Assembly: GCA_964496695.1 (NCBI GenBank)
Contig: CAZCBE010000002.1
Coordinates: 61,861 to 125,860, forward strand
DNA length: 64,000 nt
Direction: 5' to 3'
Source: an uncultured Klebsiella sp.
Lineage (GTDB): Bacteria > Verrucomicrobiota > Verrucomicrobiia > Limisphaerales > SXTU01
The translations under genes were made by a program, and so were the position numbers. The notes below the pieces were generated by a model that had not been told where the DNA came from, ran no database searches, and worked only from the letters and a program-made list of their open reading frames with translations. Positions 6,646-24,296 of this stretch are shown here, piece after piece; position 1 is the first letter of the stretch; every line of letters begins with the position of its first letter.

Positions 6646-8304
6646 TCACTCGGGAAAAAAGCTCACATCATCGAGATAGACCACTGCACCTGCGGGAGCC
6701 GCAACGTTCAGCATCAGCGTCGCTGTGAGCGTCGCCGGTGGAGTGAAGGCCATGCTGACCTCGGACCAAGTTGATCCAGCCTTCACCGTGGCTTCTTGTT
6801 TCAGCGTCTTGCCATCGAATGTGCCGGCCAGTTCCACTTTGAGTTCCGTGTCCGCCGCAGCTTTCACCCAGGCCGTCAGCCGGTGCGGCACGCCGGTGGT
6901 AAACTGGATGCAGCGGAATCTTCCCTTGCCCTTGATGACGGCGGATTGCTTGCCGGCTTTGACGTGTGCTGGATCAGTGTTGATCGCGACGGCATTGTCC
7001 CAGAAGCCTGATGCTTTCAGGAAACCGACACCCTCCGGCTCGAAGCTGCCCCACAGGCTGCATCCGTCGTAGCTGAGTTTCGCCTTTGCGTGCCGGGGAT
7101 CTGGCTCCACCCGGAGCAGTGGGGTGGAGTAGCGGAAGCCTTCGCGGCCGGTCACGGCCCCACCGATGTAGAAGGGCAGTGGACTGGCCGGGAGTTCGAC
7201 GGCGCAAGTCTGGCCATTGATTTTTGCTGGCAGGGTCTGCCAGAACCGCGAGACCCAGTTACCATTGTCGCCATGGCTCAGCATCAAGTCCGCGTTGGTC
7301 ACTGCTCGTGGCCCGCTAAAATCCCACTCGGCCAAAGTGGCCTTGCCGCGCTTCGCCAGGCGCACAGGACCGACTGTGTTGAACGGCGGTGCGCCATTGA
7401 GATGCACATCCAGCCACGCGAAGACCTGTTCATCGGCGGTGGGCGTCAGGCCGTGGTTCCAGTTCGGCAGAATGGTCAGGTGTTTTGGGCCGGCGGCGAG
7501 GCGGTGTGTCTCCATCACCGCCGGCATCCAGTAGAAGTGGTCGTTCGCACCGGTGAACCAGCCGATGGGCGTCTTCCGCTGCGCGAGCCGGAAGGCGGGA
7601 TCGAGCGTGGTGCGCCAGCGTTCGGCCGTCGCCGCGTCGTATTTGGGATTCGGCCCGCCGCCAAACCACCACGAGTTGCCCAGGTGCAAACTGCCGGTGC
7701 CAAACATCGCCGAGCCAACCTTCAGCCGTGGGTCCACACCCGTCATCAACGTTGTGTAAAACCCACCCCATGAACTGCCGCACATGCCGATGCGGTTCCG
7801 GTCCACTTCCGGCCGGGATTCCAGATAGGACACGGCCTTCAGCAGGGCGACCGCTCCGTGATAGATCGGTGCGCGTTTCGGGTCGGTGCCAGCCTCCAGA
7901 CTGGACACGATCGGATAGCCGCCGGTGGAGCGGTAGCCCGGCATCGGGAAGTCAATGCACAGCGCCGCATAGCCGCGCTTGGCCCCGAGGATGGTCCAAT
8001 AGGTCGAGGCCCGCCCCAGCCCGCCCTGGTTCCAGATGAAGGCCGGCAACGCGCGCTTGCCCTTCGCGAAGCTGAAGAAGGCGAAAATATCCACGGCCTT
8101 CTCCCCGTCCATCTCGGAGTGGAACATCACCTCCTCGGTGACGATGCCATCCTTCTCCTCTGATTTCATGGTCCGAGGGTTCAGCGGGGTGGCGAGCAGC
8201 TTCTCCAGATCGAACACCGGGTCAGGCAGCGCCGCAGCGGATAGGAAGGGCATCGCGAGCAGCCAACTCAGCAGCAGCACAGGCAGAAGCTGGCGCAGCT
8301 TCAA
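6646..8304 (-). CDS. secreted alpha/beta-hydrolase esterase with C-terminal carbohydrate-binding-like domain
   Basis: The ORF is open to 8496, but a signal peptide (L)KLRQLLPVLLLSWLLAMPFLSAAA starts at TTG 8304. Nucleophile elbow GSSWGG. C-terminal ...VVYLDDVSFFPE resembles a CBM4/9-type sandwich. Start position uncertain. Confidence 0.65.
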   Translation of the reverse strand: MKLRQLLPVLLLSWLLAMPFLSAAALPDPVFDLEKLLATPLNPRTMKSEEKDGIVTEEVMFHSEMDGEKAVDIFAFFSFAKGKRALPAFIWNQGGLGRASTYWTILGAKRGYAALCIDFPMPGYRSTGGYPIVSSLEAGTDPKRAPIYHGAVALLKAVSYLESRPEVDRNRIGMCGSSWGGFYTTLMTGVDPRLKVGSAMFGTGSLHLGNSWWFGGGPNPKYDAATAERWRTTLDPAFRLAQRKTPIGWFTGANDHFYWMPAVMETHRLAAGPKHLTILPNWNHGLTPTADEQVFAWLDVHLNGAPPFNTVGPVRLAKRGKATLAEWDFSGPRAVTNADLMLSHGDNGNWVSRFWQTLPAKINGQTCAVELPASPLPFYIGGAVTGREGFRYSTPLLRVEPDPRHAKAKLSYDGCSLWGSFEPEGVGFLKASGFWDNAVAINTDPAHVKAGKQSAVIKGKGRFRCIQFTTGVPHRLTAWVKAAADTELKVELAGTFDGKTLKQEATVKAGSTWSEVSMAFTPPATLTATLMLNVAAPAGAVVYLDDVSFFPE

Positions 8305-8310
8305 ACTGCT

Positions 8311-8421
8311 GCGGAGCGCGGGTCTGTGACCCGCAGCTACGTCCGTCCTGCGGATGCGTGCAGATTCCCCCGTGACCTTCTGGCTAAGCTGCCTGCTGCG
8401 GGTCACAGACCCGCGCTCCGC
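8311..8421. repeat. perfect 27-nt inverted repeat with 57-nt spacer (GCGGAGCGCGGGTCTGTGACCCGCAGC)
   Basis: 8311-8337 is the exact reverse complement of 8395-8421. It lies in the divergent spacer between the esterase (-) and DUF1080 (+) genes. It is related to the GGAGCGCCGGTCTCCGACCCGGCG family seen at 26169, 26335, 28588 and 28638. Confidence 0.9.
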
Positions 8422-8614
8422 CCGCGTTTCGGTGCCGTGGTCCAATACACCAAGTGCAAAGGTTCGCGCGAAAAATCCCTTTCCGTGGCTGTGCATCGGC
8501 GGGCAGACTACGAGGCGCTTCGCCCCGGGTCAAAGTAAACGGACCACGCGGTCTCGTGCCGTGGTGGTGGTCCGGTTTCCTGATGGGCGGAGGCAACGAA
8601 TTCGTCAGCCAACC

Positions 8615-9367
8615 ATGAAATCGAAACTGTCCGTCCGCTCCTCCTCCCTGGCTCTCGCCACGCTTCTGCTCGCCGCGTTGACCCTCCCCGCCGCCGAACC
8701 GGTTCCGCCGAAGGGTTTCCGCGCGCTCTTCAACGGCAAAGACCTCACCGGCTGGTATGGTCTGAACCCGCACAACAGCGTAAAGCTCCAGGGCGAAAAG
8801 AAGGATGCCAACCTCAAGCAGCAGCGCGAGGAATTCTCAAAGCACTGGACCGTCGAGAACAGCGAACTGGTCAACAGCGGCACCGGCCCTTACGCCACGA
8901 CGGATGCGGAGTTCGGCGACATCGAGTTCCTCATCGAATACAAGACCGTGGCGAAGGCCGACAGCGGCATCTACCTGCGCGGCACGCCGCAGGTGCAGAT
9001 CTGGGATGTGAACCAAGTGTTCAACGAGAAGAACCCCACGCGCAAGCCGCACCTCGGCTCCGGCGGTCTCTTTAACAACACGCCGGGCGCTCCCGGCCGC
9101 GATCCGCTCGTGGTGGCGGACAAACCCTTTGGCGAGTGGAATACCTTTCGCATCCAGCAGGTCGGCGCGACCACCTGGGTGTGGCTCAACGGCAAGGTGG
9201 TGGTGGATCGGGCGGTGATGGAAAACTACTGGGACAAGAAGCAGCCGCTCCCGGCGAAAGGCCCGATCATGCTCCAGACCCACGGCGGCGAGATCCGCTG
9301 GCGGAACATCTTCGTGCGGGAGATCGGTGAGGCGGAGGGAAAGAAGCTGCTCGCAGGGGCAAAGTAA
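8615..9367 (+). CDS. DUF1080 domain protein (3-keto-disaccharide hydrolase-like)
   Basis: Start taken at ATG 8615 (MKSKLSVRSSSLALATLLLAALTLPAAEP signal). WTVENSELVNSG...FGDIEFLIEY...DSGIYLRG...PFGEWNTFRI...NG...IMLQTHGGEIRWRNIFVREI is the DUF1080 pattern. Confidence 0.85.
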   Translation: MKSKLSVRSSSLALATLLLAALTLPAAEPVPPKGFRALFNGKDLTGWYGLNPHNSVKLQGEKKDANLKQQREEFSKHWTVENSELVNSGTGPYATTDAEFGDIEFLIEYKTVAKADSGIYLRGTPQVQIWDVNQVFNEKNPTRKPHLGSGGLFNNTPGAPGRDPLVVADKPFGEWNTFRIQQVGATTWVWLNGKVVVDRAVMENYWDKKQPLPAKGPIMLQTHGGEIRWRNIFVREIGEAEGKKLLAGAK

Positions 9368-9379
9368 CTCACAAGTCGC

Positions 9380-10381
9380 ATGCGTCCCGTCAGTCTCATC
9401 CGTCGCCTCGCTTCTGCGATGCTGCTGCTGGCCTTCGTCGCACAGCCTCAAGCAGCCGAATCACCTAAAGTCGTCAAAGTCTTCATCCTCGCCGGCCAGT
9501 CGAACATGGAAGGGCACGGGTTCATCGCGGCGGACCCTAAACGAAACGGTGGCAAAGGCTCGCTGGAGTTCCTGTTGAAGGACGCGGCCACCGCGTCGAA
9601 GTTTGCGCATCTCGCGGATGCCGCAGGCAAGTGGCGCGTGCGTGACGATGTCTTCATCCACTACCTCCAGCGGAAGGGGCCGCTCACCACCGGCTTTGGC
9701 GCGAAGGATACGCTCATTGGCCCGGAGCTGGGCTTCGGCTGGGTGACGGGCGATGCGCTGAAGGAGCCGGTGCTGCTCATCAAATGTGCCTGGGGCGGTA
9801 AGAGCCTCGCGGTGGACTTCCGTCCGCCCAGCGCGGGGAAGCTGCCGTATTCCATGGGTGAGAAGGCGGATGCCGCCCTCGCGCAAGACCCGGCCATGCT
9901 CGGCAAGTATTATCGCGAAACCGTGGCGCTCACGAAGGCCGCGCTGGCGCAAGTGAAGGAACTCGTGCCCGGCAGCGACGGGCGCTACGAGATCGTCGGC
10001 TTCGGCTGGCACCAAGGGTGGAATGATCGCATCAACGACAAGTTCAACGCGGAATACGAGAGCAACATGGCGCACTTTATCCGCGACATCCGTCGCGACC
10101 TGGGCGTGGCGAAGCTGCCGTTCGTGATCGCGGAGAGCGGCATGAGCGGCTTTGAGGAAAAGCATCCGCGCGCCCTCTCGCTCATGAAGGCGCAGGCCGC
10201 GGTGGCCGATTATCCTGAGTTCAAAGGCAATGTCGGCTTCGTCGGCACCAAGGCCTTCTGGCGTCCCGTCGAGTCCTCGCCGTCAGGGCAGGGCTACCAC
10301 TGGAACACGAACGCGGAGACTTATTATCTGATTGGTGAGGCGATGGGCCGGGCGATGCTCAAGCTCCTGGAGAAACCCTAA
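9380..10381 (+). CDS. sialate O-acetylesterase-like esterase (DUF303/SGNH type)
   Basis: 333 aa with a signal peptide, then VKVFILAGQSNMEGHG (GQSNM nucleophile block). The TAA stop overlaps the next ATG (TAATG). Confidence 0.8.
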   Translation: MRPVSLIRRLASAMLLLAFVAQPQAAESPKVVKVFILAGQSNMEGHGFIAADPKRNGGKGSLEFLLKDAATASKFAHLADAAGKWRVRDDVFIHYLQRKGPLTTGFGAKDTLIGPELGFGWVTGDALKEPVLLIKCAWGGKSLAVDFRPPSAGKLPYSMGEKADAALAQDPAMLGKYYRETVALTKAALAQVKELVPGSDGRYEIVGFGWHQGWNDRINDKFNAEYESNMAHFIRDIRRDLGVAKLPFVIAESGMSGFEEKHPRALSLMKAQAAVADYPEFKGNVGFVGTKAFWRPVESSPSGQGYHWNTNAETYYLIGEAMGRAMLKLLEKP

Positions 10382-13300
10382 TGAGATTTGTCCTTCCTTT
10401 GGTGGCAGTCACGCTGGCGTTGTCGGCTGGCCTTATGCATGCGGCCCCGGCCGATTATCAAAAGGACATCCGCCCGCTGCTCAACGAGTTCTGCCTCAAG
10501 TGTCACTCGACCAAGGATCAGAAGGGCGACCTCGACTTGGAGCGGTTCAAGTCGCTGGACTCTGTGAAGCGCGACGCCAAGGTCTGGCTGCAGGTGGAGG
10601 AACAGATCGAACTGGGTGAGATGCCCCCCAAGGACAAGCCACAGCTCTCCAGCGCACAGAAAACCCAGCTCATGACGTGGTTGCGCGGCACGCTCAATGA
10701 CATCGCGAAAGCCAATGCGGGCGACCCCGGGCCGGTTGTCCTCCGCCGCCTCTCGAACGCCGAATACACCTATACCGTGCGCGACCTCACGGGCGTCGAG
10801 TCCCTCGATCCCGCGCGCGAGTTCCCTGTGGATGGCGCGGCGGGCGAGGGCTTCTCGAACACCGGCGCGGCGCTCGTCATGTCGCCCGCGCTGCTCACGA
10901 AGTATCTTGATGCCGCGAAAGACATCGCCGCGCACGCCGTGCTGCTGCCCGATGGCGTGCGGTTCTCGCCGAGCACTTCACAGCGTGACTGGAGCGAGGA
11001 GCGGCTCACGGCCATCCGCACGTTCTATGCGCAGTTCACTGAGAAGGGCGGCGGCACGGCGGTCAATCTGCAGGGCATCAAGTTCGACACCAAGGACGGC
11101 GGCGTGCTGCCGCTTGAAAAGTATCTTGCTGCGACGCTCGCCGAGCGCGATGTGTTGGCTACCAAGCGCAAGTCAATTGCCGACATCGCCAAGGAACGCG
11201 GCCTCAACGCGAAATATCTCGGCACGCTCTGGGCCGCGCTCAACGGCACGGAGCCTTCGCTGGTGCTGGATCTCGTCCGTGCCCAATGGCGCGCCGCGAA
11301 GCCTGCGGACGCGTCGGCCCTGGTCGCCTCGATCGCGCAGTGGCAGCGGACCTTGTGGCGCTTCACGACCGTCGGTCACATCGGCAAGCGCAACGGTCCG
11401 TTGGCGTGGCAGGTTCCGGTGCTTCCACTCGCCGCCTCGCAGGAGATACGAGTGAAGCTCGCCGCGCCAAGCAACGGCAACGAAGTCACCTTTTATCTCC
11501 TCGCGTCCGATGCGGGCGACGGCAACGGGCACGATTTCGCCGTCTGGGAAAATCCGCGGCTGATCGCGCCTGGCCGGCCCGACCTGCGCCTGCGTGATGT
11601 GCGCGAGGCGGTCCTGGCCTTCCAATCGCAGCGCGAGCGCGTCGCGGCCAGCGCGGCCAAGTGTCTTGCGGCGGCGGCGGAAGCCGCGGCGATGTCTGAC
11701 CGTGCCGCTGTTGACCAGCTCGCGCAGAAGCACGGCGTCGAGCCAACGCTGTTGGTGGCGTGGCTGGATTATCTCGGCATCGGCGGCGGGCCGGTGCGGG
11801 TGACCTCGCACATGACCAAGAAGGCCGAGAACGCGAACAATTACGATTTCATCAAGGGCTGGACCGGTGCGGATGCATTGAGCGTGCTGGCGAATTCGAG
11901 CGACCAGGCCGTGCGTATTCCCGGCCACATGAAGCCGCACAGCGTCGGCGTGCATCCGTCGCCGAAGCTGCGCGTGTGCGTCGGTTGGAGCAGCCTGGTC
12001 GCGGCGACCGTGCGCGTCGAGGCTGCGGTGCAGCACGCGCATCCCGAGTGCGGCAACGGGGTCACCTGGGCTGTGGAACTTCGGCGGGGCAGCACGCGCC
12101 AGCGCCTGGCCGCCGGCACCGCCCAGGGCGCGAAGGAAGTGAAAGTTCCGCTGGTGGAAAACCTCGCGGTGCAGCCGGGCGACCTGCTCTCGCTCGTCAT
12201 CGGCCCGCGCGACGGCAACCACTCGTGCGACATGACGGCAGTGGACCTGGACATCAAGAGCGCCGACGGCAAGCAGTGGAACGTCGCACGCGACGTCTCG
12301 CCGAACATCCTCGCTGGCAACCCGCACGCGGACGGCTTGGGCAACCCCGGCGTCTGGCATTTCTACAGCGAGCCGGACAGCGGTGGCGGGGCGGACTCCG
12401 TGATCCCGGCCGGCTCGGTCTTGGCGAAATGGCGTGCTGCCACTGACGCGAGGGAGCGAAGCCGGCTGGCGGACGAGGTGCAAAGGTTGTTGCAGGGCAA
12501 TGCGGCTGGTCTGGCCAAGGGTGCGCCTGATCTGGTCCTTCATCGCGAACTTACGTCGCTTGGCGGCCCGCTGTTCAAGCACCAACCGGGTAGCAGCCGA
12601 CGTGAGGAGGCTCCGATCAAACCCCGCGATAATCAGAGCCTCCTCACGTCGGCTGCTACCTGGGGTCTTGATCCCGCGCTCTTCGGCAAGCACCCGAATG
12701 GCACCGCCCTTCCGGCGGCGAATCTTTGCGTGCGCGCGCCTTCGCTCATTGAGGTGCGTCTGCCCGCAGCGTTGGTCGAAGGCTGCGAGTTCGTGACCAC
12801 CGCCACCTTGCACCGCGAGACCGGGGCGGAAGGCAGCGTGCAAATGCAGGTGCTGACGAACAAGCCTGCGAGCGCCTCCGGCCTCGCGGCCGGCACGGCG
12901 ACGGTGCTGGGCGGCAAGAGCACCTGGTCGGACGGCGAGCGGCCCGTGGGGTCGGACGCGCCCATTCTCGTGGCGGAAGGCAGCGCGTCACGCAAACGCA
13001 TCGAGACGGCGCTCGACGGGTTCCGCCAGCTCTTCCCCGCCGCACTCTGCTACACGAAGATCGTGCCAGTGGACGAGGTCGTGACCCTCACGCTCTATTA
13101 TCGTGAGGATGACCAGCTTCGCCGCCTGATGCTGGATGATGCGCAGGCCGCCGAGCTGGACCGGCTCTGGGCCGAACTGCACTTTGTCAGTCACAGCCCG
13201 CTCAAGCTCGTGGATGCCTTCGAGCAGCTCTGGCAGTTCGCCACGCAGGACGCGGACCCGAGCGCCTTCACGCCGATGCGCGAGCCGATCAAGCAGCGCG

Positions 13301-14589
13301 CGGAGGTCTTTCGCAAGGAACTGGTCGCCGCCGAGCCGAAGCAGATCGAGGCGGTGTTGAACTTCGCCGGACAGGCATGGCGACGTCAGCTTACGAGTGC
13401 TGAAAGGACCGAACTTGGCGCGCTCTATCGCACTTTCCGCGCTCAGGAGCTTTCGCACGACGCCGCGCTGCGCATGACGCTAGCCCGGGTGTTTGTTGCG
13501 CCAGGCTTTCTCTACAAGCTGGAGAAGCCTGCGCCGGGCACCGCGCAGTCGCCGGTAAGTGATACGGAGCTGGCCACCCGGCTGAGCTACTTCCTCTGGT
13601 CCTCCACGCCGGACAGTGAACTGGCCGGGCTGGCGTCAGCAGGCAAGCTGCGCAATCCCGAGGTGCTTGCGACCCAGATGCGGCGGATGCTGAAGGACCC
13701 GCGGGTGCGGCGGCTGGCGGTGGAGTTCGGCGCGCAGTGGCTGCACACGCGCGACCTCGACAAGCTCGACGAGAAGAGCGAGCGGCACTTCCCGACGTTC
13801 GCCTCGGTGCGCGGCGCGCTGAATGAGGAACCGATTCGCTTCTTCACCGACCTCTTCCAGCACGACGGCTCCGTGCTGGCGCTGCTGGATGCGGACTACA
13901 CGTTCGTGAACGGCACGTTGGCGAAGCACTACGGATTGACCGGTGTGAACGGCAACGAGTGGCGGCGGGTGGAGGGCGTGCGCGCGCAGGGCCGCGGCGG
14001 CGTGCTGGGCTTCGGCGCGACGCTGGCGAAGCAGAGCGGGGCTTCGCGCACGAGTCCGATTCTGCGCGGCAACTGGCTCAGCGAAACCCTGCTCGGCGAG
14101 CGTCTGCCGCGTCCGCCCAAGGGCGTGCCCGTGCTGCCCGAGGAAGCCCCCGCCGGACTCACCGAGCGCGCGCTGACCGAGAAGCATAGCAGCGACCCGA
14201 AGTGCGCCGGCTGCCACGCGCGCATTGATCCGTTCGGCTTCGCCCTGGAGCGCTATGACGCCATCGGCCGGCTACGGACGAAGGATGCAGCCGGCCTGGC
14301 GATTGACACCCGCACCCGCACGGCGGACGGCACGGCACTGGATGGCCTCGACGGGCTGCGGAACTACCTGCTCACGACGCGCCGCGAGGCTTTCGAGCGG
14401 CAGTTCTGCCGGAAGCTGCTCGGCTACGCGCTTGGGCGCGGCGTGCTGTTGAGCGACCAGCCGTTGATTGACGAGATGGTGAAGCAGCTTGCGGCGAACG
14501 AACATCGCGTCGGTTCCGTCGTCGAACTGATCGTGCGCAGCCGCCAGTTCCGTGAAATTCGCAGTCGCGACCGGGCCTCGGCCGAGTAA
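10381..14589 (+). CDS. giant PSCyt/DUF1587/DUF1592/DUF1595/DUF1588/DUF1585-type protein
   Basis: 1402 aa. Signal peptide, then N-terminal CLKCH (CxxCH). LRRLSNAEYTYTVRDLTGV (DUF1587-like). ...SRTSPILRGNWLSETLLG... (DUF1588-like). CAGCHARIDPFGFALERYDAIG (DUF1585-like). Confidence 0.85.
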   Translation: MRFVLPLVAVTLALSAGLMHAAPADYQKDIRPLLNEFCLKCHSTKDQKGDLDLERFKSLDSVKRDAKVWLQVEEQIELGEMPPKDKPQLSSAQKTQLMTWLRGTLNDIAKANAGDPGPVVLRRLSNAEYTYTVRDLTGVESLDPAREFPVDGAAGEGFSNTGAALVMSPALLTKYLDAAKDIAAHAVLLPDGVRFSPSTSQRDWSEERLTAIRTFYAQFTEKGGGTAVNLQGIKFDTKDGGVLPLEKYLAATLAERDVLATKRKSIADIAKERGLNAKYLGTLWAALNGTEPSLVLDLVRAQWRAAKPADASALVASIAQWQRTLWRFTTVGHIGKRNGPLAWQVPVLPLAASQEIRVKLAAPSNGNEVTFYLLASDAGDGNGHDFAVWENPRLIAPGRPDLRLRDVREAVLAFQSQRERVAASAAKCLAAAAEAAAMSDRAAVDQLAQKHGVEPTLLVAWLDYLGIGGGPVRVTSHMTKKAENANNYDFIKGWTGADALSVLANSSDQAVRIPGHMKPHSVGVHPSPKLRVCVGWSSLVAATVRVEAAVQHAHPECGNGVTWAVELRRGSTRQRLAAGTAQGAKEVKVPLVENLAVQPGDLLSLVIGPRDGNHSCDMTAVDLDIKSADGKQWNVARDVSPNILAGNPHADGLGNPGVWHFYSEPDSGGGADSVIPAGSVLAKWRAATDARERSRLADEVQRLLQGNAAGLAKGAPDLVLHRELTSLGGPLFKHQPGSSRREEAPIKPRDNQSLLTSAATWGLDPALFGKHPNGTALPAANLCVRAPSLIEVRLPAALVEGCEFVTTATLHRETGAEGSVQMQVLTNKPASASGLAAGTATVLGGKSTWSDGERPVGSDAPILVAEGSASRKRIETALDGFRQLFPAALCYTKIVPVDEVVTLTLYYREDDQLRRLMLDDAQAAELDRLWAELHFVSHSPLKLVDAFEQLWQFATQDADPSAFTPMREPIKQRAEVFRKELVAAEPKQIEAVLNFAGQAWRRQLTSAERTELGALYRTFRAQELSHDAALRMTLARVFVAPGFLYKLEKPAPGTAQSPVSDTELATRLSYFLWSSTPDSELAGLASAGKLRNPEVLATQMRRMLKDPRVRRLAVEFGAQWLHTRDLDKLDEKSERHFPTFASVRGALNEEPIRFFTDLFQHDGSVLALLDADYTFVNGTLAKHYGLTGVNGNEWRRVEGVRAQGRGGVLGFGATLAKQSGASRTSPILRGNWLSETLLGERLPRPPKGVPVLPEEAPAGLTERALTEKHSSDPKCAGCHARIDPFGFALERYDAIGRLRTKDAAGLAIDTRTRTADGTALDGLDGLRNYLLTTRREAFERQFCRKLLGYALGRGVLLSDQPLIDEMVKQLAANEHRVGSVVELIVRSRQFREIRSRDRASAE
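12589..12660. repeat. 72-nt palindromic repeat inserted in frame in the DUF1592-type CDS
   Basis: Perfect 25-nt arms, 12589-12613 (GGTAGCAGCCGACGTGAGGAGGCTC) and 12636-12660 (exact reverse complement), with a 22-nt loop. It translates as (G)SSRREEAPIKPRDNQSLLTSAAT. Confidence 0.9.
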
Positions 14590-14601: not shown

Positions 14602-15933
14602 ATGAGCACCCATCGCTTCAACCGCCGCGCCTTCCTGCGCGGCGTCGGCGTCACCATGGCGCTGCCGTGGATGGAGTCCTTCAACGTGTGGGGCGATGAG
14701 CCGGGCAAGAGCAAGCCGGCCAGTGAGGCTCCGGTGCGGCTCGCGGTGCTGTTCTCCGGCAACGGCTTTCACTCGAAGGAATGGTGGGCCAAGGGCGAGG
14801 GCAAGGCGATGGAACTGGGCCGGGTGCTCGCGCCGCTGCATGACCTCCGCGAGAAGCTGACCTTCGTGCGCGGCCTGTATCACGAGGAGGCGCGCAAGGG
14901 GAACATCCACAGTTCGCAGACGGGCAACATGCTCTCGGGCGCGCCCATCGCATCAGGCGGGGAGATTCGGTCGGGCACGAGCTTTGACCAGTTGCTGGCG
15001 CAGACGTATGGGCGTTCGACGAAGGTGCCGAGTCTCGTGCTGGGCTGCGAGCACTCGAACCCGTCGGTGCATAAGAACTACTCGATGCTCTACAGCTCGC
15101 ACATCTCGTGGAGTTCACCCACCACGCCGACGCCGCTGGAGCTATATCCGGCGCTGGCGTTCGACCGGCTGTTCAAGGACGAGGCCACGCCCGGCGACAA
15201 GAGCGTGCTGGATGCGGTGCTGACGGACGCGCAGGACCTGCGCCGCAGCATCAGCAAGGGCGACCAGCGCAAGCTCGACGAGTATCTCGACTCGGTGCGT
15301 GACGTGGAGAAGCGCATTGAGAACGCCGGCAAGCGCGGCGAAGTGCAGGGCTGGCGGCCCACGCTTGACAAGCCCAATATCAAGCGTCCGGCCGACGGCA
15401 TCCCGCAGGATGTCGGCGAGCACATGCGGCTCATGTGCGATCTGCTGGTGCTGGGTTTCCAGACGGACACCACGCGCATCACGACGCTGAAGCTGAACAA
15501 CGACCACAGCGCGCTGCGCTTCCCGAACCTGCCCAGCGTGCAGCAGGCGGGCCACGGCATTGACTACATGATCCACCACCTGCTCTCGCACAGCGACGGC
15601 GAGGACTGGCTGAAGGTGAACCAGTTCTTCATGGAGCAGGTGGCGTATGTCGCGAAGAAGCTCGACGCGATTCAGGAAGGGCCGCGCACGCTGCTCGACA
15701 ACACGATGCTCATGCACTGTTCCAGCATGATGGCCGGGGCGAGACACGACAACGACCAGCTCCCGGTCATCGTCCTCGGCGGCGCCGGTGGCCGCCTCAA
15801 AGGCGGTCGCGCCCTCGATTACAAGGACAAGCCCGACCGCCAGCTCTGCCGGCTCTATCTCTCGATGATGGACAAGATGGCGGTGCGGCCAGCGAGCTTT
15901 GGCGATGGGAAGAAGCCGTTGGAGGAGGTCTGA
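14602..15933 (+). CDS. DUF1552 domain protein, Tat signal
   Basis: 443 aa. FNRRAFLRGVGVTMALPWMESF leader typical of DUF1552. Internal MIHHLLSHSD (HxxSHH-like). Directly follows the DUF1592-type gene. Confidence 0.85.
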   Translation: MSTHRFNRRAFLRGVGVTMALPWMESFNVWGDEPGKSKPASEAPVRLAVLFSGNGFHSKEWWAKGEGKAMELGRVLAPLHDLREKLTFVRGLYHEEARKGNIHSSQTGNMLSGAPIASGGEIRSGTSFDQLLAQTYGRSTKVPSLVLGCEHSNPSVHKNYSMLYSSHISWSSPTTPTPLELYPALAFDRLFKDEATPGDKSVLDAVLTDAQDLRRSISKGDQRKLDEYLDSVRDVEKRIENAGKRGEVQGWRPTLDKPNIKRPADGIPQDVGEHMRLMCDLLVLGFQTDTTRITTLKLNNDHSALRFPNLPSVQQAGHGIDYMIHHLLSHSDGEDWLKVNQFFMEQVAYVAKKLDAIQEGPRTLLDNTMLMHCSSMMAGARHDNDQLPVIVLGGAGGRLKGGRALDYKDKPDRQLCRLYLSMMDKMAVRPASFGDGKKPLEEV

Positions 15934-16019
15934 GGGCTTGCGCGTCTGACAAGCCAGTTCATCCGCTAAACCGGCCCGCGCGGACCGTCGCATCACCCTT
16001 TCTTCCAGGAAACCAACCG

Positions 16020-19000
16020 ATGAACCTTCTCTTCATCCTGCCTGTGGTCCTGCTCTTTTCCTTCGGCCAGCTTCGCGCTGCGGATGCCAGCGCAAGCGTT
16101 GCCATGGCGGAAAAACATCGTGCCTTGTTCAAGACGCATTGCGTCTCCTGTCATGGACCGGAGAAGCAGAAAGGCAAGTTCCGCGTGGATGATCTGCCCT
16201 TCACCCTCTCGAACATCGAGACGGCGGAGCGCTGGCAGAAGGTGCTCAACGCACTGAACTCCGGCGAGATGCCGCCGGAGGGCGAGCCGCCGCTGCCGAA
16301 TGCCGCGAAGGCTGATTTCCTCGATGATCTGGCGAACGTGATGGTGGCGGCACGGCGGAGCCTGAGCGATCAGAACGGCGTCATCACCATGCGGCGGCTC
16401 AACCGGCGAGAGTATCGGAACACGCTGCGCGAGCTGCTCGGGGTGGAGATCAACGTGGCGGAGCTGCCGTCGGACACGGGCACCGGCGGCTTTGACACGG
16501 CGGGCGTGAACCTGTTCATGTCGGCGAACCAGTTCGAGCAGTATCAATCGCTCGGACGCGAGGCGCTGGTGGAGGCCTTTGCCTGGCAGGCGGCGGCGGG
16601 CGAGGAGCGCAAGCTGCGCTACGAGGCGGAGAGTTCGCTCAAGGTCATCACCAAGAATTACCAGGAGAAGCTCGATGCGCTGGAGCGGGCGAAGCAGTGG
16701 GTGAAGGCCGTGGATGCAGCAGCGGCTCGCCCAGAGAACGCAAAGGTTGTGGCGGTGCTGCGGGCAGAGTCGAAGAGCGGCGACCTCTTCCGCCGGTCGT
16801 GGGCGAAGCTCAAGGGCGCGCCCGCGCCGGAGGATTTTGGCTTCCGAACGGTGGAGAACAACGCCGACAAGGCCAACGGTGCGCTGAGCTACGGAACACC
16901 GACCGGGGCGGGTTACATGCGGCCTTACCACGAACACTATCTGAAGCAGCCGCACCTGGACACGGGTGCCTATCTGACCATCATGGCCGGCAATGACCTT
17001 GGCAACGACGCGCTGAGCATCTACGTGCCGCCGAGCTGGCCGGTGGGGGATTACACGGTGCGCGTGCGCGTGGCGGCGACGCCGCAGGCTTCGCCGGAGC
17101 GGCGCTTCATCGAGTTCGGCATTCACCCGCGCAACGGGCAGGTGATGAGCACGCATGAGGTCACGGGCACGCTGGCCGCGCCGCAAATCATTGAGATTCC
17201 CCTCACGCTGACCAAGGGCAACCAGGACCGCGACAACCGCACGATCTTCATTCGCGAGAAGGGCAGCAACGATCACTACACCCAGACCCGCCTCATCTTT
17301 AACCAGGGCAAGGCAAAGAACGGGATCGGCCCGGAACTGGCACTGTGGGTGGACTGGGTGGAGGTCGAGCGCAAAACGAAAACCGCACCGGTGAGCGCTC
17401 CAGCGGTGGTGAAGTTCGGCATTGGTGACAACCGTCAGGTCGGCTCCGTTTCCGCAAAAGGGCTGACCGCCGTGCGCTTCGAGTGCGAGACCGCGAACGA
17501 GAAGGTGTCCAAGTATGTCGCCGGGCAGATTGATGCGCGGGACCGGGCGCAGCGCTGGGTGAAGGCGGTGGAGGAGGCCGCTGCACGGCCGGAGAACAAG
17601 GAGATTGTTGCTGAACTGAAGAAGAACTCGAAGAACGACGCCATCTTCCGCCGCTCATGGGACAAGCTCAAAGGCGCGCCCTCGCCCGAGTCGTTCGGCT
17701 TCAAGACGGAGGAGAACAACGCGGACAAGGCCAACAGCGCGCTCGGGGAGAACTGGCAGAAGTATCATGAGTATTACCTGCGGCAGCCTGGCCTCGACCG
17801 CGGCGCGTATCTCGGCACGCCCACGATGCACCCGGCGGTGATGGCGCTGGGCTTCCTGCAGTTGCCCGTGCCCGGCGAGTGGACCAGCGGCAACTACGTC
17901 TTTCGCGTGCGCCTGGCGGCGGCGAAGGACGCGCGGCCGGAGCAGCGCTTTCTCGAAGTGGGCATGCATCCGCGCAATGGCATGGTCCGCGCGACGTTCG
18001 AGGTTACGGGCACGATGGACCGGCCGCAGATCGTCGAAATGCCCTTCACGCTCACGCGTTCCCAGACTGATGCGGGTGATCGCACCCTGTTCATCCGTGA
18101 GAAAGGTGCCTGGGACAGCAACGAGGAAGGGGGACGCAAACGTGCGGAAGCGCTGAAGCGCAACGGCATCGGCCCCGAGGCCGTGCTATGGATTGACTAC
18201 ATGGAAATCGAGCGGCTCAGCGACGCCGTCCGCCCGCAGCCGCCCGGCCTGGCGGCGCTCGCTGGCCTCCCGGTGGATGATAAGACCAGTGCGCCGTCAT
18301 CCACCGAGGTGCAAGCGGCGCTCGCCCGTTTCGCCACGGTGGCGTTCCGCGGCACCGAACCGCCGGCGAGCTATCTGCAACGGCTCGCCAGCATCTACGA
18401 CACGCAGTTGAAGTCCGGCACGAAGCACAGCGTGGCGCTGCGGGAGACGCTCGCCGTGGTGTTGTCATCGCCCATGTTTCTCTATCTCGCCGAGCCGGCC
18501 GCCGATGAGAAGCGCCGTCCGCTTACCGGTCCCGAACTGGCCACGCGGCTTGCCTATTTTCTCTGGAGCGCGCCGCCGGATGAGACGCTGCTGGAGCTGG
18601 CCAGACGCGGCGAACTGGCGAAGCCCGAGGTGCTCGCCGCCGAGACCGCGCGGTTGCTGGATGACCCGCGTGCGCAGGACTTCGTGCGCGGCTTCCTGTT
18701 CCAGTGGCTGGGGATGGACCGGCTCGATTTCTTCGAGGTGAACCGCGCGAAATACCCGCGCTTCGATGACAGCACCCGGCTGGCCGCGAAGAACGAGGTG
18801 TATGAAACCTTTGCCCATGTCCTGCGGCACAACGCCCCGCTGCGCGATCTCCTCAAGTCCGACTATGTCGTCGTCAATCACCTGCTGGCGGACTTCTACG
18901 GCATTCCCGGCGTGAGCGGCGATGCCTACCAGAAGGTGTCGCTGCCCAAGGATTCACCGCGCGGCGGCCTGCTCGGCATGGCCGCCATCAACGTCATGGG

Positions 19001-19571
19001 CGGCAACGGCGACCACACCAGCCCCGTCGAGCGCGGAGCCTGGGTGCTGCGCAAGCTCCTCAATGATCCGCCGCCGCCGGCCCCGGCGAACGTGCCGCAA
19101 ATCACCCGGCTCGCCGGCAAAGTGCTCACCACCCGCGAGCGGCTGCAGGCGCATCAGGAGGATGCGCAGTGCGCGAGCTGTCACCGCAAGATTGACCCCA
19201 TCGGATTCGGCCTGGAGAATTTCGATGCCGTCGGCCAATGGCGCACCAGCGACACCTATCAGGTCATGGACGAGAAAGGCAAACCGGTGAAGGGGGCGAG
19301 CAAGACCTGGACGATCGAGGTCACTTCACAGCTTTACAAAGGCCCGGCCTTCCGGAGCTACTTCGAGCTGCGCGACCTCATTGCCGCCAAGGGCGACAGC
19401 TTCGCCCGGGGGTTCAGCATGGCCTTGACCGAGTATGCGCTGGGCCGCCCGTTGGGATTCCGTGACGAGCCGCTGATCGAGGCGATGGTGTGGCGCACGG
19501 GGCAGAAGGGATTCGCCACGCGCGAGTTCGTCCATGCGCTGGTGAGCAGCCGGGAGTTTCAAACCAAGTGA
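16020..19571 (+). CDS. second PSCyt/DUF1587/DUF1592/DUF1588/DUF1585-type protein with an internal domain duplication
   Basis: 1183 aa. CVSCHGPEKQKGKFRVDDL, MRRLNRREYRNTLRELLGVE, HTSPVERGAWVLRKLL, CASCHRKIDPIGFGLENFDAVG. Two ~250-aa internal repeats (about 16614-17372 and 17472-18215). Confidence 0.85.
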   Translation: MNLLFILPVVLLFSFGQLRAADASASVAMAEKHRALFKTHCVSCHGPEKQKGKFRVDDLPFTLSNIETAERWQKVLNALNSGEMPPEGEPPLPNAAKADFLDDLANVMVAARRSLSDQNGVITMRRLNRREYRNTLRELLGVEINVAELPSDTGTGGFDTAGVNLFMSANQFEQYQSLGREALVEAFAWQAAAGEERKLRYEAESSLKVITKNYQEKLDALERAKQWVKAVDAAAARPENAKVVAVLRAESKSGDLFRRSWAKLKGAPAPEDFGFRTVENNADKANGALSYGTPTGAGYMRPYHEHYLKQPHLDTGAYLTIMAGNDLGNDALSIYVPPSWPVGDYTVRVRVAATPQASPERRFIEFGIHPRNGQVMSTHEVTGTLAAPQIIEIPLTLTKGNQDRDNRTIFIREKGSNDHYTQTRLIFNQGKAKNGIGPELALWVDWVEVERKTKTAPVSAPAVVKFGIGDNRQVGSVSAKGLTAVRFECETANEKVSKYVAGQIDARDRAQRWVKAVEEAAARPENKEIVAELKKNSKNDAIFRRSWDKLKGAPSPESFGFKTEENNADKANSALGENWQKYHEYYLRQPGLDRGAYLGTPTMHPAVMALGFLQLPVPGEWTSGNYVFRVRLAAAKDARPEQRFLEVGMHPRNGMVRATFEVTGTMDRPQIVEMPFTLTRSQTDAGDRTLFIREKGAWDSNEEGGRKRAEALKRNGIGPEAVLWIDYMEIERLSDAVRPQPPGLAALAGLPVDDKTSAPSSTEVQAALARFATVAFRGTEPPASYLQRLASIYDTQLKSGTKHSVALRETLAVVLSSPMFLYLAEPAADEKRRPLTGPELATRLAYFLWSAPPDETLLELARRGELAKPEVLAAETARLLDDPRAQDFVRGFLFQWLGMDRLDFFEVNRAKYPRFDDSTRLAAKNEVYETFAHVLRHNAPLRDLLKSDYVVVNHLLADFYGIPGVSGDAYQKVSLPKDSPRGGLLGMAAINVMGGNGDHTSPVERGAWVLRKLLNDPPPPAPANVPQITRLAGKVLTTRERLQAHQEDAQCASCHRKIDPIGFGLENFDAVGQWRTSDTYQVMDEKGKPVKGASKTWTIEVTSQLYKGPAFRSYFELRDLIAAKGDSFARGFSMALTEYALGRPLGFRDEPLIEAMVWRTGQKGFATREFVHALVSSREFQTK

Positions 19572-19647
19572 AGCCTGCAGAGCCATTGCCCAAACCCTTT
19601 CCTTCAATCATTCCGCCGATGCCATCGTCCGCTGTTCCACGAACTGC

Positions 19648-20940
19648 ATGAACGCCCCGCTCCGACGCCGTCGTTTCCTCCAATCCAGCACCGCGCTGAT
19701 CGCGTTGCCAGCGCTCGAATCACTGGGCTTCCGTCGCTTTGCCTCGGCGGCCCCGGCGGCCCCGCCGAAGCGGCTGATCTTCCTCGGCTTCGGCTGGGGC
19801 ATCACCGAGAGCACCTGGTATCCGGACATCAAAAAGCCGGGCACGGATTATGAGCTGCCCATCGGCCTCAAGCCGCTCGCGCGGCACAAGGCGGACTTTA
19901 GCGTCGTGCAGGGGTTGTGGAACAAATACTCAAACGAAGGCCACTGGGGCAGCACGATGTGGCTGACGGGGGCGAACCGGTATGCGCAGCCGGGGCAGAG
20001 CTTTCACAACAGCATCAGTGCGGACCAGGTCGCGGCGGCGCAGCTTGGCCTCCAGACGCGGTTTGCTTCCTTGCAGTTCAATGGCAGCCAGACGGGAGAC
20101 GCCAGCGGGCACGGGCCTGGCCTGTCAATGGCCTGGGATGTGAGCGGGAAGCCGGTGGGCGGGCAGAACGGCCCTGTGGCGGCATTCCACCGGCTCTTTG
20201 CCAAGGACACCACGCCCATCGAGCAGCAAAAGGCGTTGCTGGCGCAGAAGCGCAGCGTCCTGGACGCGGTGCTCGACAACGCGAAAGCCTTGCAGCGCGG
20301 CCTCGCGAAGAACGACAACACCAAGCTCGAAGAATACTTTCAGGGCATCCGCGACATCGAGACGCGGCTCGCAAAGGAAGAGCAGTGGATGGGCGTGCCG
20401 CAGCCGAAGGCCCCGATCCCCGAGCCCAAGCCCGGCGTGAACGGCAAGGAGGAGATCAAGCTCATCTATGACCTCATGATCGCCGCGATGCAGACGGACA
20501 GCACGCGGGTGATGACCTTCCGCCAGCCTGTGAACACGCTGCTGACCGCGTTGGACATCAAGGTGCATCCGCACGACATGAGCCACTATCACACCACGCT
20601 GGGCGAGAAGCTGGACGCCTCGCAGCGTCGGGATCTGGCGCAGAGCGAACTGCTCGCGGGTTTTCTCGACAAGCTCAAGGCCACGAAGGAATCCGACGGC
20701 ACCACGCTCTTTGACCATGTCGCCCTGGCCTACGGCAGCAACATCCGCACGGGGCACGAGCTGAGCAACTGCCCCACCATCCTCGCCGGCCGGGGGGCGG
20801 GCATCAAACTCGGCCAGAGCATCGTCGCGCCGAAGGACACGCCGCTGTGCAATGTCTGGCTGACCATGCTGCACGGGCTGGGCGTCAAGGCGGAGCGGCA
20901 TGGGGACAGCACGGGGGTGCTGAAGGAAATTGTGGTGTGA
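19648..20940 (+). CDS. DUF1552 domain protein, Tat signal
   Basis: 430 aa. LRRRRFLQSSTALIALPALESL leader and HDMSHYH motif. Paralogue of 14602-15933. Confidence 0.85.
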   Translation: MNAPLRRRRFLQSSTALIALPALESLGFRRFASAAPAAPPKRLIFLGFGWGITESTWYPDIKKPGTDYELPIGLKPLARHKADFSVVQGLWNKYSNEGHWGSTMWLTGANRYAQPGQSFHNSISADQVAAAQLGLQTRFASLQFNGSQTGDASGHGPGLSMAWDVSGKPVGGQNGPVAAFHRLFAKDTTPIEQQKALLAQKRSVLDAVLDNAKALQRGLAKNDNTKLEEYFQGIRDIETRLAKEEQWMGVPQPKAPIPEPKPGVNGKEEIKLIYDLMIAAMQTDSTRVMTFRQPVNTLLTALDIKVHPHDMSHYHTTLGEKLDASQRRDLAQSELLAGFLDKLKATKESDGTTLFDHVALAYGSNIRTGHELSNCPTILAGRGAGIKLGQSIVAPKDTPLCNVWLTMLHGLGVKAERHGDSTGVLKEIVV

Positions 20941-20995
20941 AGCCGTGACCTGAATGACCTCGGCGGCGGTGGCCCCGCCAAGCCAAACCAATCTC

Positions 20996-21883
20996 ATGAA
21001 CCGCGTTTCCATTTCCCGACTTTTCGGCACCGTCCTCGCGGCGCTGCTCCTCACGCCAGCCGCAGTGGCCGCCGCGGATGCCTTCCGCATCGAGAAGAAT
21101 GTGGCTTATCTCGCGCCCGACCGGACGGAGAAGGCCGATCTGTATTTGCCGGCGAGCGCGGCGGCGGGGGCGCGGCGTCCGGCGGTGGTCATCATCCACG
21201 GCGGCGGCTGGACGGGCGGTGACAAGGGCGCGGGGCGCGAGATCAACATCGGGACGAACCTCGCGCTGAACGGCTACGTGGGCCTGAGCATCAACTACGT
21301 GCTCGCCAGCACGAACAAGGCGGTGAGCAAGGCGACCTGGCCGCAGAACCTGCACGACTGCATGACCGCCGTGCGCTGGCTGCGCAAGAACGCGGAGCGG
21401 CTGCAGGTGGACCCGGAGCGCATCGGGGTCATCGGTGGCTCGGCGGGCGGGCATCTGGCGGCGATGCTGGCGGTGCTGGGTGACAAGGACGGCCTCGATC
21501 CGAAAGGGCCTTACGGCGAGTTCTCCTGCCGGGTGCAGTGTGCGGTGGACCTCTACGGACCGGCGGATTTGTCCGACCGGCCACACCTCACCATGCTGGG
21601 CAAAACGCGTGAGGAGGCCCCGGAGCTTTACCGTGCGGTCTCGCCGGTGACTTACGTGGACAAGAACGATCCGCCGATCCTCATCATGCACGGCACGGCG
21701 GACAAGACGGTGGATGTCGAGCAATCCAAGCGGTTCGCGGCCAAGCTGAAGGAAGCGGGCGCGCGGCATGAACTGGTGATCGTCGAGGGTGCGCCGCACA
21801 CATTTCATTTGCAGCCGAAGCAGGCTGATCTGCGGCCGAAGGTGCTGGGATTCTTCGACCAGCACTTGAAGGCGGCACGGTAG
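20996..21883 (+). CDS. secreted alpha/beta-hydrolase (esterase/lipase, HGGGW type)
   Basis: Start at ATG 20996 gives the signal MNRVSISRLFGTVLAALLLTPAAVAAADA. Oxyanion IIHGGGW, nucleophile GGSAGGHLA, C-terminal HGTADKTV. Confidence 0.85.
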   Translation: MNRVSISRLFGTVLAALLLTPAAVAAADAFRIEKNVAYLAPDRTEKADLYLPASAAAGARRPAVVIIHGGGWTGGDKGAGREINIGTNLALNGYVGLSINYVLASTNKAVSKATWPQNLHDCMTAVRWLRKNAERLQVDPERIGVIGGSAGGHLAAMLAVLGDKDGLDPKGPYGEFSCRVQCAVDLYGPADLSDRPHLTMLGKTREEAPELYRAVSPVTYVDKNDPPILIMHGTADKTVDVEQSKRFAAKLKEAGARHELVIVEGAPHTFHLQPKQADLRPKVLGFFDQHLKAAR

Positions 21884-24078: not shown

Positions 24079-24080
24079 GC

Positions 24081-24232
24081 GCGTGGTGGCAGGCATCCTG
24101 CCTGCCGTAGAGGGCGCGCGTCCCGCCGCCCGGATGCAGGCAACGGAGTTCGTAGCGGCAGTTGCGCAAGTTGCCCGAGTCCGCCGGGCGGGACGCCCGG
24201 CTCTACGGCAGGCGGGACGCCTGCCGCCACGC
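24081..24232. repeat. 152-bp imperfect long palindrome built from GC-rich GGA-loop hairpins
   Basis: The 32-nt arms 24081-24112 (GCGTGGTGGCAGGCATCCTGCCTGCCGTAGAG) and 24201-24232 match 29/32 as reverse complements. Inner units CCGGGCGGGACGCCCGG and GGCAGGCGGGACGCCTGCC are themselves hairpins. Confidence 0.85.
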
Positions 24233-24296
24233 GCCACGAGCGGGCTTGAGTTGCCGACGGCACCTGTGAGTTAATCGGGAAAACGAAAGACACTTT

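Follow-up and report, generated by a model that had tools for sequence, protein, structure and literature searches.

A putative REPIN-type doublet of GTAG-headed REP units, in frame within a hypervariable linker of a verrucomicrobial DUF1592 gene

How does a long, perfect palindrome come to lie in frame within a protein-coding gene? The question is raised by a locus in the window, the whole 64-kb stretch of DNA analysed here. The palindrome consists of perfect 25-nt arms, GGTAGCAGCCGACGTGAGGAGGCTC at 12589-12613 and its exact reverse complement at 12636-12660, with a 22-nt spacer between them. Over all 72 nt the frame of the ORF at 10381-14589 (plus strand) continues without a stop, and the encoded sequence is ...KHQPG-SSRREEAPIKPRDNQSLLTSAAT-WGLDP.... 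As judged from the ORF list and Pfam, the host gene specifies a 1402-aa planctomycete/verrucomicrobial PSD-family protein with the domains PSCyt1, PSD3, PSD5, PSD4 (DUF1592), PSCyt3 (DUF1588), and PSD2; a DUF1552 partner gene lies downstream (14602-15933). An initial annotation of the locus had described the arms, the spacer, and the uninterrupted frame within the DUF1592 ORF in the same terms, and all are confirmed.

In a repeat search the arms lengthen to 32 nt (12586-12617 and 12632-12663) with 94% complementarity, so that the full imperfect palindrome, 12586-12663, includes a few complementary flanking bases. No comparable inverted pair was seen in dinucleotide shuffles of the window (expected 0.00). 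Folding of a 111-nt RNA stretch gives -74.7 kcal/mol, versus -35.0 +/- 3.5 in shuffles (z = -11.4), and the very stable mRNA hairpin proposed in the initial annotation is thus predicted. Such a fold, together with the perfect complementarity of the arms, would suit a functional RNA or DNA structure specific to this gene (a pause, an RNase III site, or a protein-binding site) that is kept by selection rather than carried as a passenger repeat. However, an Rfam scan of 12300-12950 returned only sub-threshold matches resembling miRNA precursors, equivalent to a generic hairpin, and the distribution of the arms in other genomes, described below, argues further against this idea.

Within the 64-kb window the arm is single-copy: no second copy was found with up to 7 mismatches allowed, or with a degenerate core motif. 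Consequently, its repeat nature can be demonstrated only through other genomes. There, at least 120 stretches carry the 24-nt arm GTAGCAGCCGACGTGAGGAGGCTC; they belong to about 78 MAGs, most of them verrucomicrobial, and one MAG (JACRJZ01) contributes 11 loci among the first 120 matches. The genome from which the window comes is not among the loci listed, and a scan of viral contigs found no copy of the 25-mer. The arms usually form inverted doublets with variable spacers, and a first scan yielded 102 paired doublets that share the 24-nt arms while their spacers vary. The initial annotation had taken the arms for a dispersed repeat rather than native protein sequence, and the abundance of the 25-mer core elsewhere upholds that view. 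One master sequence characterises the family across many orders of Verrucomicrobiota. These hundreds of copies come from unrelated projects, and the same element occupies the same site in two independent assemblies (L001 and L002). That the palindrome is an assembly or sequencing artefact, for example a palindromic chimera, is therefore a vanishingly small prospect, for which only its perfection speaks.

Comparison with these copies defines the parts of the element. The family unit is 70 nt (24+22+24, GTAG...CTAC) and corresponds to 12590-12659 in the window; the outer G/C pair of the window's 25-nt arms is absent from the family consensus. The left unit (12590-12613, plus strand) matches the 24-nt master sequence exactly, and the right unit (12636-12659, minus strand) is its exact reverse complement, making this an A/A type doublet. 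The spacer between them (CGATCAAACCCCGCGATAATCA, 12614-12635, plus strand) is hypervariable within the family, ranging elsewhere from 13 to 194 nt with frequent 7-nt tandem repeats. Across the family, the outer flanks of the doublets are complementary only at chance level; the complementary flanking bases of 12586-12663 thus probably reflect chance and codon constraints and lie outside the element. (In neither doublet sample is element length enriched for multiples of three, and the distance from GTAG to CTAC is usually 1 or 2 modulo 3, even within ORFs, which counts against the reading favoured below; an in-frame unit size is therefore no property of the family.)

The pattern used in the first scan demanded an A-type arm, which biases the statistics of pairing between arms. 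For this reason metagenomes were scanned with a B-type arm, which gave a further, independent set of 96 doublets. Among the B-ascertained copies, 74 of 87 doublets are A/B hybrids, whose arms differ by two mismatches. The dominance of hybrids argues that the arms act as separate REPs, not as one selected long hairpin, and since pairing along a perfect long stem is not conserved, it also weakens the case for a gene-specific structure.

Each arm, judged from its sequence, has the architecture of a REP. The left arm is composed of GTAG, a C, the imperfect local hairpin AGCC-GA-C-GTGA-G-GA-GGCT, and a final C. Thus the window arms begin with the conserved unpaired 5' tetranucleotide (GT[AG]G) that characterises the GTAG super-family, and in 256 arms the counts at its four positions are G 251, T 242, A 235, and G 253. 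The local stem is formed by A6-T23, G7-C22, C8-G21, C9-G20, the mismatches G10.A19 and A11.G18, and C12-G17, and closes on a GNRA-like loop; 227 of the 256 arms have GTGA or GTAA there. At position 12:17, 211 arms have CG and 39 have GC; only 6 cannot pair, as against about 66 expected under independence, although these covariation counts rest on few independent events. Other compensatory variants are seen at 9:20 (GC), 8:21 (AT), and 6:23 (CG); the arms of L003 and L032 (AGCGGAC-GTGA-GTCCGCT) are a fully paired compensatory variant, and those of L125 and L131 (AGAC...GTCT) carry further changes of this kind. Nearest-neighbour folding of a single arm does no better than shuffles, so it is the covariation, and not the folding energy, that argues for the local hairpin. 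The short stem (5-13 bp in the super-family), small loop, and complementary changes nevertheless amount to the imperfect palindrome of a GTAG super-family REP, and the inverted pairing of two such units, in the window as in the 102 and 96 doublets elsewhere, is that of a REPIN.

A search of the window (tblastn with four RAYTs) found no REP-associated tyrosine transposase. Elsewhere, however, a candidate is flanked by the arms. The 208-aa ORF at L011:935-1558 matches NCBIfam NF047646 (REP-associated tyrosine transposase) with E = 7e-12, at 45 bits and thus below the curated cut-off of 80; it aligns with E. coli TnpA-REP (4ER8) at E = 8.5e-5, with the HUH and YxxxNPV motifs in register, and it escapes Pfam Y1_Tnp even at E<=10. 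Some of its homologues carry the JGI name RayT. At all four independent loci, which lie in other genomes, GTAG> arms are found 14-93 nt upstream of the gene and <CTAC arms 3-46 nt downstream, so that in these relatives a Y1 HUH RAYT-like gene is flanked by the same REPs. (An IS200-like Y1 transposase at L069 was also considered as a partner, but it lies 1.4 kb from an arm, is not arm-flanked, and was not counted.) By analogy with characterised systems, mobilisation of the family by a RAYT would be expected.

The inverted 24-nt termini, short variable interior, and dispersal of the element also recall a MITE; the element would then descend by deletion from an IS with a DDE transposase, and the arms would be its terminal inverted repeats. 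This origin is highly improbable, since no target-site duplication was seen at the doublets and their outer flanks show only the chance complementarity described above, each terminus opens with GTAG and has a covarying hairpin of its own, arms also occur singly and in tandem arrays, and the sole arm-flanked transposase found is the Y1 HUH RAYT-like protein.

An extragenic location is one of the marks of REPs, and here the family departs from the rule, as do the intragenic GTAG REPs already documented within the super-family (PMC3733652). Besides the window copy, 42 of 102 doublets in the first scan and 31 of 85 in the second (about 36-41%) lie in long ORFs. That these are real genes is indicated by Pfam domains on both sides of the insert in 16 of 17 ORFs tested. 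The carriers include CarB, UvrB, AddB, P-type ATPases, and Cas4-Cas1, and for CarB and UvrB the insertions are visible against solved structures. The family is not mainly intergenic; of the initial annotation's "genome-wide intergenic repeat", the repeat stands and the predominantly intergenic location does not. The occurrence of the same 24-nt arms in about 200 unrelated contexts, intergenic and within many unrelated genes, is likewise difficult to reconcile with a structure dedicated to the PSD-family gene.

Within that gene, the element falls in a hypervariable linker (12559-12672, plus strand) between conserved LGGPLF and WGLD blocks. An alignment of 60 orthologues shows a linker of about 17-50 aa in all of them, and in the window gene nearly the whole linker is element, which encodes residues 737-760 (the SSRREEAPIKPRDNQSLLTSAATW region). 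The notion that the protein "simply gains" 24 residues therefore does not hold. In an AF2 model, pLDDT is below 50 at segment residues 176-197 (protein residues 736-757) and 77-88 in the flanks; the peptide is thus predicted to be a disordered, low-confidence loop, in keeping with the initial annotation. The same annotation had looked to the paralogue at 16020 for proof of insertion, but the two proteins align in their N- and C-terminal domains only, and the paralogue is unusable for this purpose around the insert.

Orthologues are more informative. L001-L004 carry the same element at the same codon position, and L256 keeps a remnant of the left arm. On this sequence comparison the insertion is old and common to orthologues rather than recent, although no empty site that would fix its boundaries was found. 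Relative to L001, the window copy has 47/48 identical arm positions, a spacer identical at 16/22, and flanking coding DNA that is 80-82% identical; relative to L002, the arms are again identical at 47/48, but the flanking coding DNA at only 63-72%. Simple neutral vertical inheritance does not explain arms of 47/48 beside flanks of 63-72%, and gene conversion, re-copying, or selection is needed. In L003, L004, and L256, on the other hand, the arms have decayed, and in one further orthologue a different REP family occupies the same linker site. Orthologues with a similar peptide thus retain a decaying nucleotide palindrome, rather than conserving the peptide with no palindrome at all.

The near-invariance of the arms in L001 and L002 is the remaining point in favour of a selected structure peculiar to this gene. 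Given the decay of the arms in three orthologues, their replacement by another family in a fourth, and the wide dispersal of the same arms, such a structure is nonetheless quite unlikely. Host-level selection could also act on the family as a whole, if it had been domesticated for a benefit such as supercoiling, nucleoid-protein binding, or mRNA stability. Three points speak for this: the master sequence does not vary among about 78 species-level genomes, whereas identity between RAYT homologues is only about 60-74%; an orthologous site within a gene has kept its arms; and the REPIN literature favours long vertical persistence (bioRxiv 10.1101/2021.07.10.451892). However, the decayed copies at this very site indicate that loss is tolerated, and RAYT re-copying, gene conversion, or a constraint of RAYT recognition on replicating copies would explain the conservation equally well; domestication of the family is therefore regarded as unlikely.

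Taken together, these observations favour, with a probability of roughly 0.82, a REPIN-type doublet of a Verrucomicrobiota REP family that entered a permissive linker in frame in an ancestor and has since been inherited vertically. Two inverted 24-nt GTAG-headed REP units with a 22-nt spacer make up the doublet. By analogy with characterised REP/RAYT systems, the units would be recognised as single-stranded hairpins (GTAG plus the local stem-loop), and a cognate Y1 HUH transposase present in single copy, the RAYT, would copy them at very low rates. An ancestor of the lineage would have acquired a copy in the hypervariable inter-domain linker of its PSD/DUF1592 gene, and the insert, preserving the frame and free of stops, would have given the protein a hydrophilic, disordered loop of 24 aa on translation and would have been retained. 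Vertical inheritance would then have followed, the arms staying at the master sequence in some lineages and decaying in others. The insert is presumably translated and may well be neutral. The mRNA hairpin may have an effect too: a perfect 25-28-bp RNA duplex could plausibly be cut by RNase III or hinder ribosomes.

The odd perfect palindrome of the window is thereby explained as ordinary mobile-repeat biology. For annotation the locus carries a warning, since peptides of the SSRREEA...SLLTSAAT type in proteins of Verrucomicrobiota derive from the repeat and should not be read as conserved motifs. The hundreds of in-frame insertions into proteins of known fold also constitute a natural data set, which can be used to study the sites that tolerate inserts of 20-30 aa, the persistence of REPs and RAYTs in gene-dense genomes, and the possible cost of strong intragenic mRNA hairpins. 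A broader idea, put forward tentatively and less probable than not, is that this one REP family is a quantitatively important, long-lived source of translated inserts across Verrucomicrobiota, with roughly four in ten copies in frame within genes, core enzymes among them. On this reading, orthologous intragenic copies, which appear to be actively kept at the master sequence by RAYT re-copying, conversion, or selection while the codons around them diverge to about 65% identity, and particular linkers that may be recurrent landing pads for several REP families, would point to a persistent within-gene replicator that shapes linkers, not to an accident tolerated now and then.

The closest known systems include the GTAG REPs of Opitutus terrae. 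GTAG REP dimers inside genes, encoding 20-30 aa, have been described and are most numerous in this organism (families GTAG-17 to -20) [Di Nocera, De Gregorio & Rocco 2013, BMC Genomics 14:522; PMC3733652]; neither the arm nor the peptides SSRREEA and SLLTSAAT appear in the paper or its supplements. The shared features are the 5' GTAG tag, the short imperfect stem-loop, repeat-flanked RAYT genes (REPtrons), a predominance of inverted dimers whose spacers measure 20-100 bp, in-frame location within genes, including DNA-repair genes such as uvr, and verrucomicrobial enrichment. Unlike the O. terrae repeats, the window family has a GNRA-like loop and tandem G.A mismatches, keeps one master sequence over many orders of Verrucomicrobiota, and has about 36-41% of its sampled doublets within genes. 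The family is thus new, and the in-frame intragenic REP doublet is a type of event already known.

With the REPIN-RAYT systems of Pseudomonas and Enterobacteria (Bertels & Rainey 2011; Nunvar et al. 2010), the family shares inverted REP doublets with a variable spacer and a long hairpin, a population structured around a master sequence, long vertical inheritance, and a single-copy Y1 HUH transposase flanked by REPs (E. coli TnpA-REP, PDB 4ER8). However, classical REPINs are almost wholly extragenic, whereas a large share of the copies of the window family would be translated, and its RAYT is distant from the classical ones, falling below the NCBIfam cut-off and being missed by Pfam Y1_Tnp.

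The palindromic elements of Rickettsia (RPE; Ogata et al. 2000, 2002) also lie in frame in many unrelated genes, including essential ones, and the peptides that they encode are likewise accepted where the protein is permissive or at its surface. The resemblance seems to be one of function, confined to in-frame palindromes: RPE-1, at 106-150 bp, is presumably unrelated in sequence, and the short rickettsial forms belong to a CGTC super-family without a dedicated transposase (PMC3733652), whereas the arm here is GTAG-tagged. The RPE hosts, moreover, have reduced intracellular genomes, while those of the window family are free-living Verrucomicrobiota of soil and freshwater.

The palindrome that the initial annotation placed at 12589-12660 is borne out: a 25-nt arm, GGTAGCAGCCGACGTGAGGAGGCTC, is followed by a 22-nt spacer and by its exact reverse complement, and a few flanking bases lengthen the arms to 32 nt, with 94% complementarity. 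This arm pair never arose in dinucleotide shuffles of the window. The 111-nt region folds at a predicted -74.7 kcal/mol (z = -11.4 versus shuffles), in agreement with the very stable RNA hairpin that had been proposed. As had also been claimed, the 72 nt are free of stops and in frame within ORF 10381-14589 (1402 aa), whose domains are PSCyt1/PSD3/PSD5/PSD4 (DUF1592)/PSCyt3/PSD2; the arms are reverse complements codon for codon (SSRREEA versus SLLTSAA). No second copy of the arm was found within the 64-kb window with up to 7 mismatches allowed.

The arm belongs to a dispersed repeat family. A first scan, using a 19-nt arm core and one genome per species, matched at least 120 stretches; the matches listed represent about 78 assemblies, and almost all of these are Verrucomicrobiota MAGs (Limisphaerales/Pedosphaera, Opitutaceae, Chthoniobacteraceae and Verrucomicrobiales), with 11 loci from a single MAG. 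These listed loci hold 52 solo arms and 102 doublets of a common design, in which 13-194 nt of spacer separate the 24-nt arm GTAGCAGCCGACGTGAGGAGGCTC from an inverted arm (12590-12659 in the window). A second, independent scan of metagenome contigs for a variant (B-type) arm gave at least 96 doublets.

Within 256 arms the 5' GTAG is almost invariant. Each arm can form a local hairpin (A6-G7-C8-C9 with G20-G21-C22-T23); tandem G.A/A.G mismatches come next, and then a C12-G17 pair closing a loop, which is GTGA or GTAA in 227 of the 256. The 12:17 pair is CG in 211 arms and GC in 39; only 6 arms have a non-pair there, versus about 66 expected under independence, with few independent events underlying these counts. 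Further compensatory changes are seen in rarer variants (9:20 GC, 8:21 AT, 6:23 CG); an arm subfamily flanking some genes for RAYTs (REP-associated tyrosine transposases) has the compensatory pair A8-T21; and in a variant found in two loci (L003 and L032; L numbers denote stretches from other genomes or metagenome contigs) the mismatches become G-C and A-T, yielding a perfect 7-bp stem. Nearest-neighbour folding of a single arm was not significant. Hybrids of the B-type arm and the A-type arm, the type of both window arms, make up 74 of 87 doublets in the B-ascertained sample and have a long stem with two mismatches; because they are so common, it is each arm that is conserved rather than perfect arm-to-arm pairing. 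GTAG REPs and REPINs are defined by GTAG with an imperfect stem-loop, mostly in inverted dimers (PMC3733652, PMC3116915); each arm is a REP.

In the outer flanks of the doublets, C is only weakly favoured at position -1 outside GTAG and complementarity is no greater than chance, which argues that the unit ends at GTAG/CTAC, without target duplication. Inside, the five bases adjoining each arm form a loose WRAYT motif, and the spacers are otherwise hypervariable, with frequent 7-nt tandem repeats. Three to four tandem copies of such a unit (TTCGGAT, GCGGAGT, CAGAAGT, CCGCATT or GAAACCC) occur in L073:2985-3075, L025:3730-3823, L028:5438-5531, L014:3804-3897, L002:956-1046 and others, and within ORFs they encode 7-aa periodic peptides, e.g. 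SEIRNPKSEIRN; spacer length seems to evolve through heptamer expansion. At L183:2269-2420 four B-type arms with a 43-nt period lie head-to-tail ahead of a single inverted A-type arm, forming a REP cluster and not a doublet. Some repeat-carrying MAGs (L007, L013, L014, L017, L052, L053, L057 and L089) bear the titles Bifidobacterium, Klebsiella, Akkermansia muciniphila or Chitinophaga; genes beside the repeats, e.g. TPR-CHAT or Cas4-Cas1 with the repeat, suggest that these bins are mislabelled or contaminated.

A regex for the HUH...Y motif, run across all loci, found a 208-aa ORF between family arms in L011. Its NCBIfam match is NF047646 (REP-associated tyrosine transposase), covering profile positions 15-146 of 146 (E = 7e-12; 45 bits, under the curated 80-bit cut-off), and it also matches E. 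coli TnpA-REP (4ER8), where PDHIHLVW aligns with the HUH motif and YVLMNPV with the catalytic-Tyr motif; Pfam Y1_Tnp does not detect it. Some of its 1362 homologues are named RayT by JGI, and some have verrucomicrobial labels. In all four independent loci compared (L011 and three homologue loci), a GTAG-oriented arm lies 14-93 nt upstream of the RAYT-like gene and a CTAC-oriented arm 3-46 nt downstream. This is the arrangement of a REPtron, and by analogy the RAYT-like protein would mobilise the doublets. No RAYT-like gene was found in the 64-kb window. An Eco57I/MmeI-type methylase gene lies directly upstream of the RAYT gene in L125-L130:1-1990, with its own intragenic doublet at 522-593, and an Eco57I/MmeI-type restriction-modification methylase at L009:4883-7999 carries an in-frame doublet.

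The initial annotation had taken the arms for a genome-wide intergenic repeat. They are indeed dispersed, but many copies are not intergenic: with a frame open for at least 60 codons on each side as the criterion, 42 of the 102 A-arm doublets from genome contigs (41%) and 31 of 85 evaluable B-arm doublets from metagenome contigs (36%) lie in open frames, versus 71% of random 70-nt windows from the same loci, so that depletion in genes is only about two-fold. Of 17 ORFs tested with Pfam, 16 have domains surrounding the element or flanking it on each side; the hosts are alpha-2-macroglobulin, a further DUF1592 protein (at a different site from the window's), FtsX, two Ser/Thr kinases, TPR-CHAT, AddB, an Eco57I/MmeI-type methylase, CarB, two PSCyt2/PSD1 proteins, a P-type ATPase, a Cas4-Cas1 fusion, UvrB, MbnP-MauG and a POT transporter. 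Compared with solved structures, the CarB insert (~30 residues) falls between E. coli residues 476 and 483, and the UvrB insert, of ~61 residues, between positions 402 and 405 of the B. caldotenax protein. The UvrB insert (L008:3450-3560) combines the element with an adjoining unrelated palindromic repeat encoding ...PLTPSLSPSGGER... (CCCTCTCCCCATCGGGTGGGGAGAGGG), and a similar sequence is nested in the L029 spacer. The commonest peptide reading is SSRREEA...SLLTSAAT; other readings are VAADVRRL... and ...EPPHVGCY. Multiples of three are not over-represented among the GTAG-to-CTAC lengths (15 of 102 and 21 of 96 doublets), and the lengths in ORFs are mostly 1 or 2 mod 3.

Alignment of 60 orthologues shows the conserved LTSLGGPLF and WGLDPALFGKHPNG joined by a hypervariable linker (~17-50 residues), in which the window's element lies. 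Since it makes up nearly all of the window's 29-residue linker, net linker length stays within the normal range. AlphaFold2 (residues 561-960, 40 homologues) gives the element peptide (segment residues 176-197) a pLDDT below 50 and the regions on either side 77-88, consistent with a disordered loop, as had been proposed, at the protein surface. At the same codon position the 70-nt element is also present in the syntenic L001 (nearby nt identity 80-82%); L002 has a 91-nt copy with its spacer expanded by GAAACCC-type heptamers, L003 and L004 decayed copies, L256 a left-arm remnant (16/24 positions), and L258 (1300-1450) a doublet of a third REP family, in a GTGG variant, which fills the linker. 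This shared position argues that the insertion predates the divergence of these lineages, and that REP families have struck the linker more than once. Compared with L002, the window's arms are identical at 47/48 positions while the flanks reach only 63-72%, a conservation that needs re-copying, gene conversion or selection. In the metagenome contig L001 the orthologue (8330-12652) is split into two called genes, of 550 aa and 883 aa; the break near 9982-10001, far from the hairpin, could reflect a frameshift, a stop codon or an error in sequencing; the orthologues in L004 and L257 are split much as in L001.

The window holds other repeats. A perfect 27-nt inverted pair (GCGGAGCGCGGGTCTGTGACCCGCAGC and its reverse complement, 57 nt apart) at 8311-8421 overlaps the ends of two ORFs, 6646-8496(-) and 8354-9367(+). 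Its left copy reads GTAG-CT-GCGGGTC-ACA-GACCCGC... on the minus strand, a second REP family of the GTAG type. The third family, also in the L258 linker, is present as an intergenic GGCAGGCATCCTGCCTGCC-GTAG-AG doublet at 24079-24234. Where the window has only this ~200-nt REP doublet (24081-24282), L001:16697-18825 has a DNA cytosine methylase and a Bpu10I-like restriction enzyme, which is a presence/absence difference of a restriction-modification system beside a REP. A second DUF1592/DUF1552 pair (15935-21070; genes 16020-19571 and 19648-20940) is absent from L001, where a PhdYeFM/PIN toxin-antitoxin pair (12652-13318) follows the first DUF1592 gene instead. Further long palindromes lie at 28067-28150, 28589-28662, 32886-33101 and 33114-33166; two are GC-rich, 28589-28662 resembling the 8311 family, and the remaining two comprise a 56-nt imperfect inverted pair, richer in AT and built from short CCAAA/TTGGA-like repeats, and next to it a 26-nt hairpin.

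Taken together, the finding is real and its initial interpretation essentially right. The GTAG REP super-family and its RAYT REPtrons were defined by Di Nocera et al. 2013 (PMC3733652), in which GTAG REP dimers encode 20-30 aa and their hosts include DNA-repair genes; the present arm sequence and its peptides are absent from that paper and its supplements, and our literature search found no other paper linking RAYT or REPIN to Verrucomicrobia. The repeat is thus a new family, but of a kind already known. At the level of the family it is somewhat notable that one master sequence occurs in many orders, with ~40% of copies putatively translated, and that it is conserved at orthologous intragenic sites. 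The classical in-frame analogue of the intragenic element is provided by the Rickettsia RPEs.
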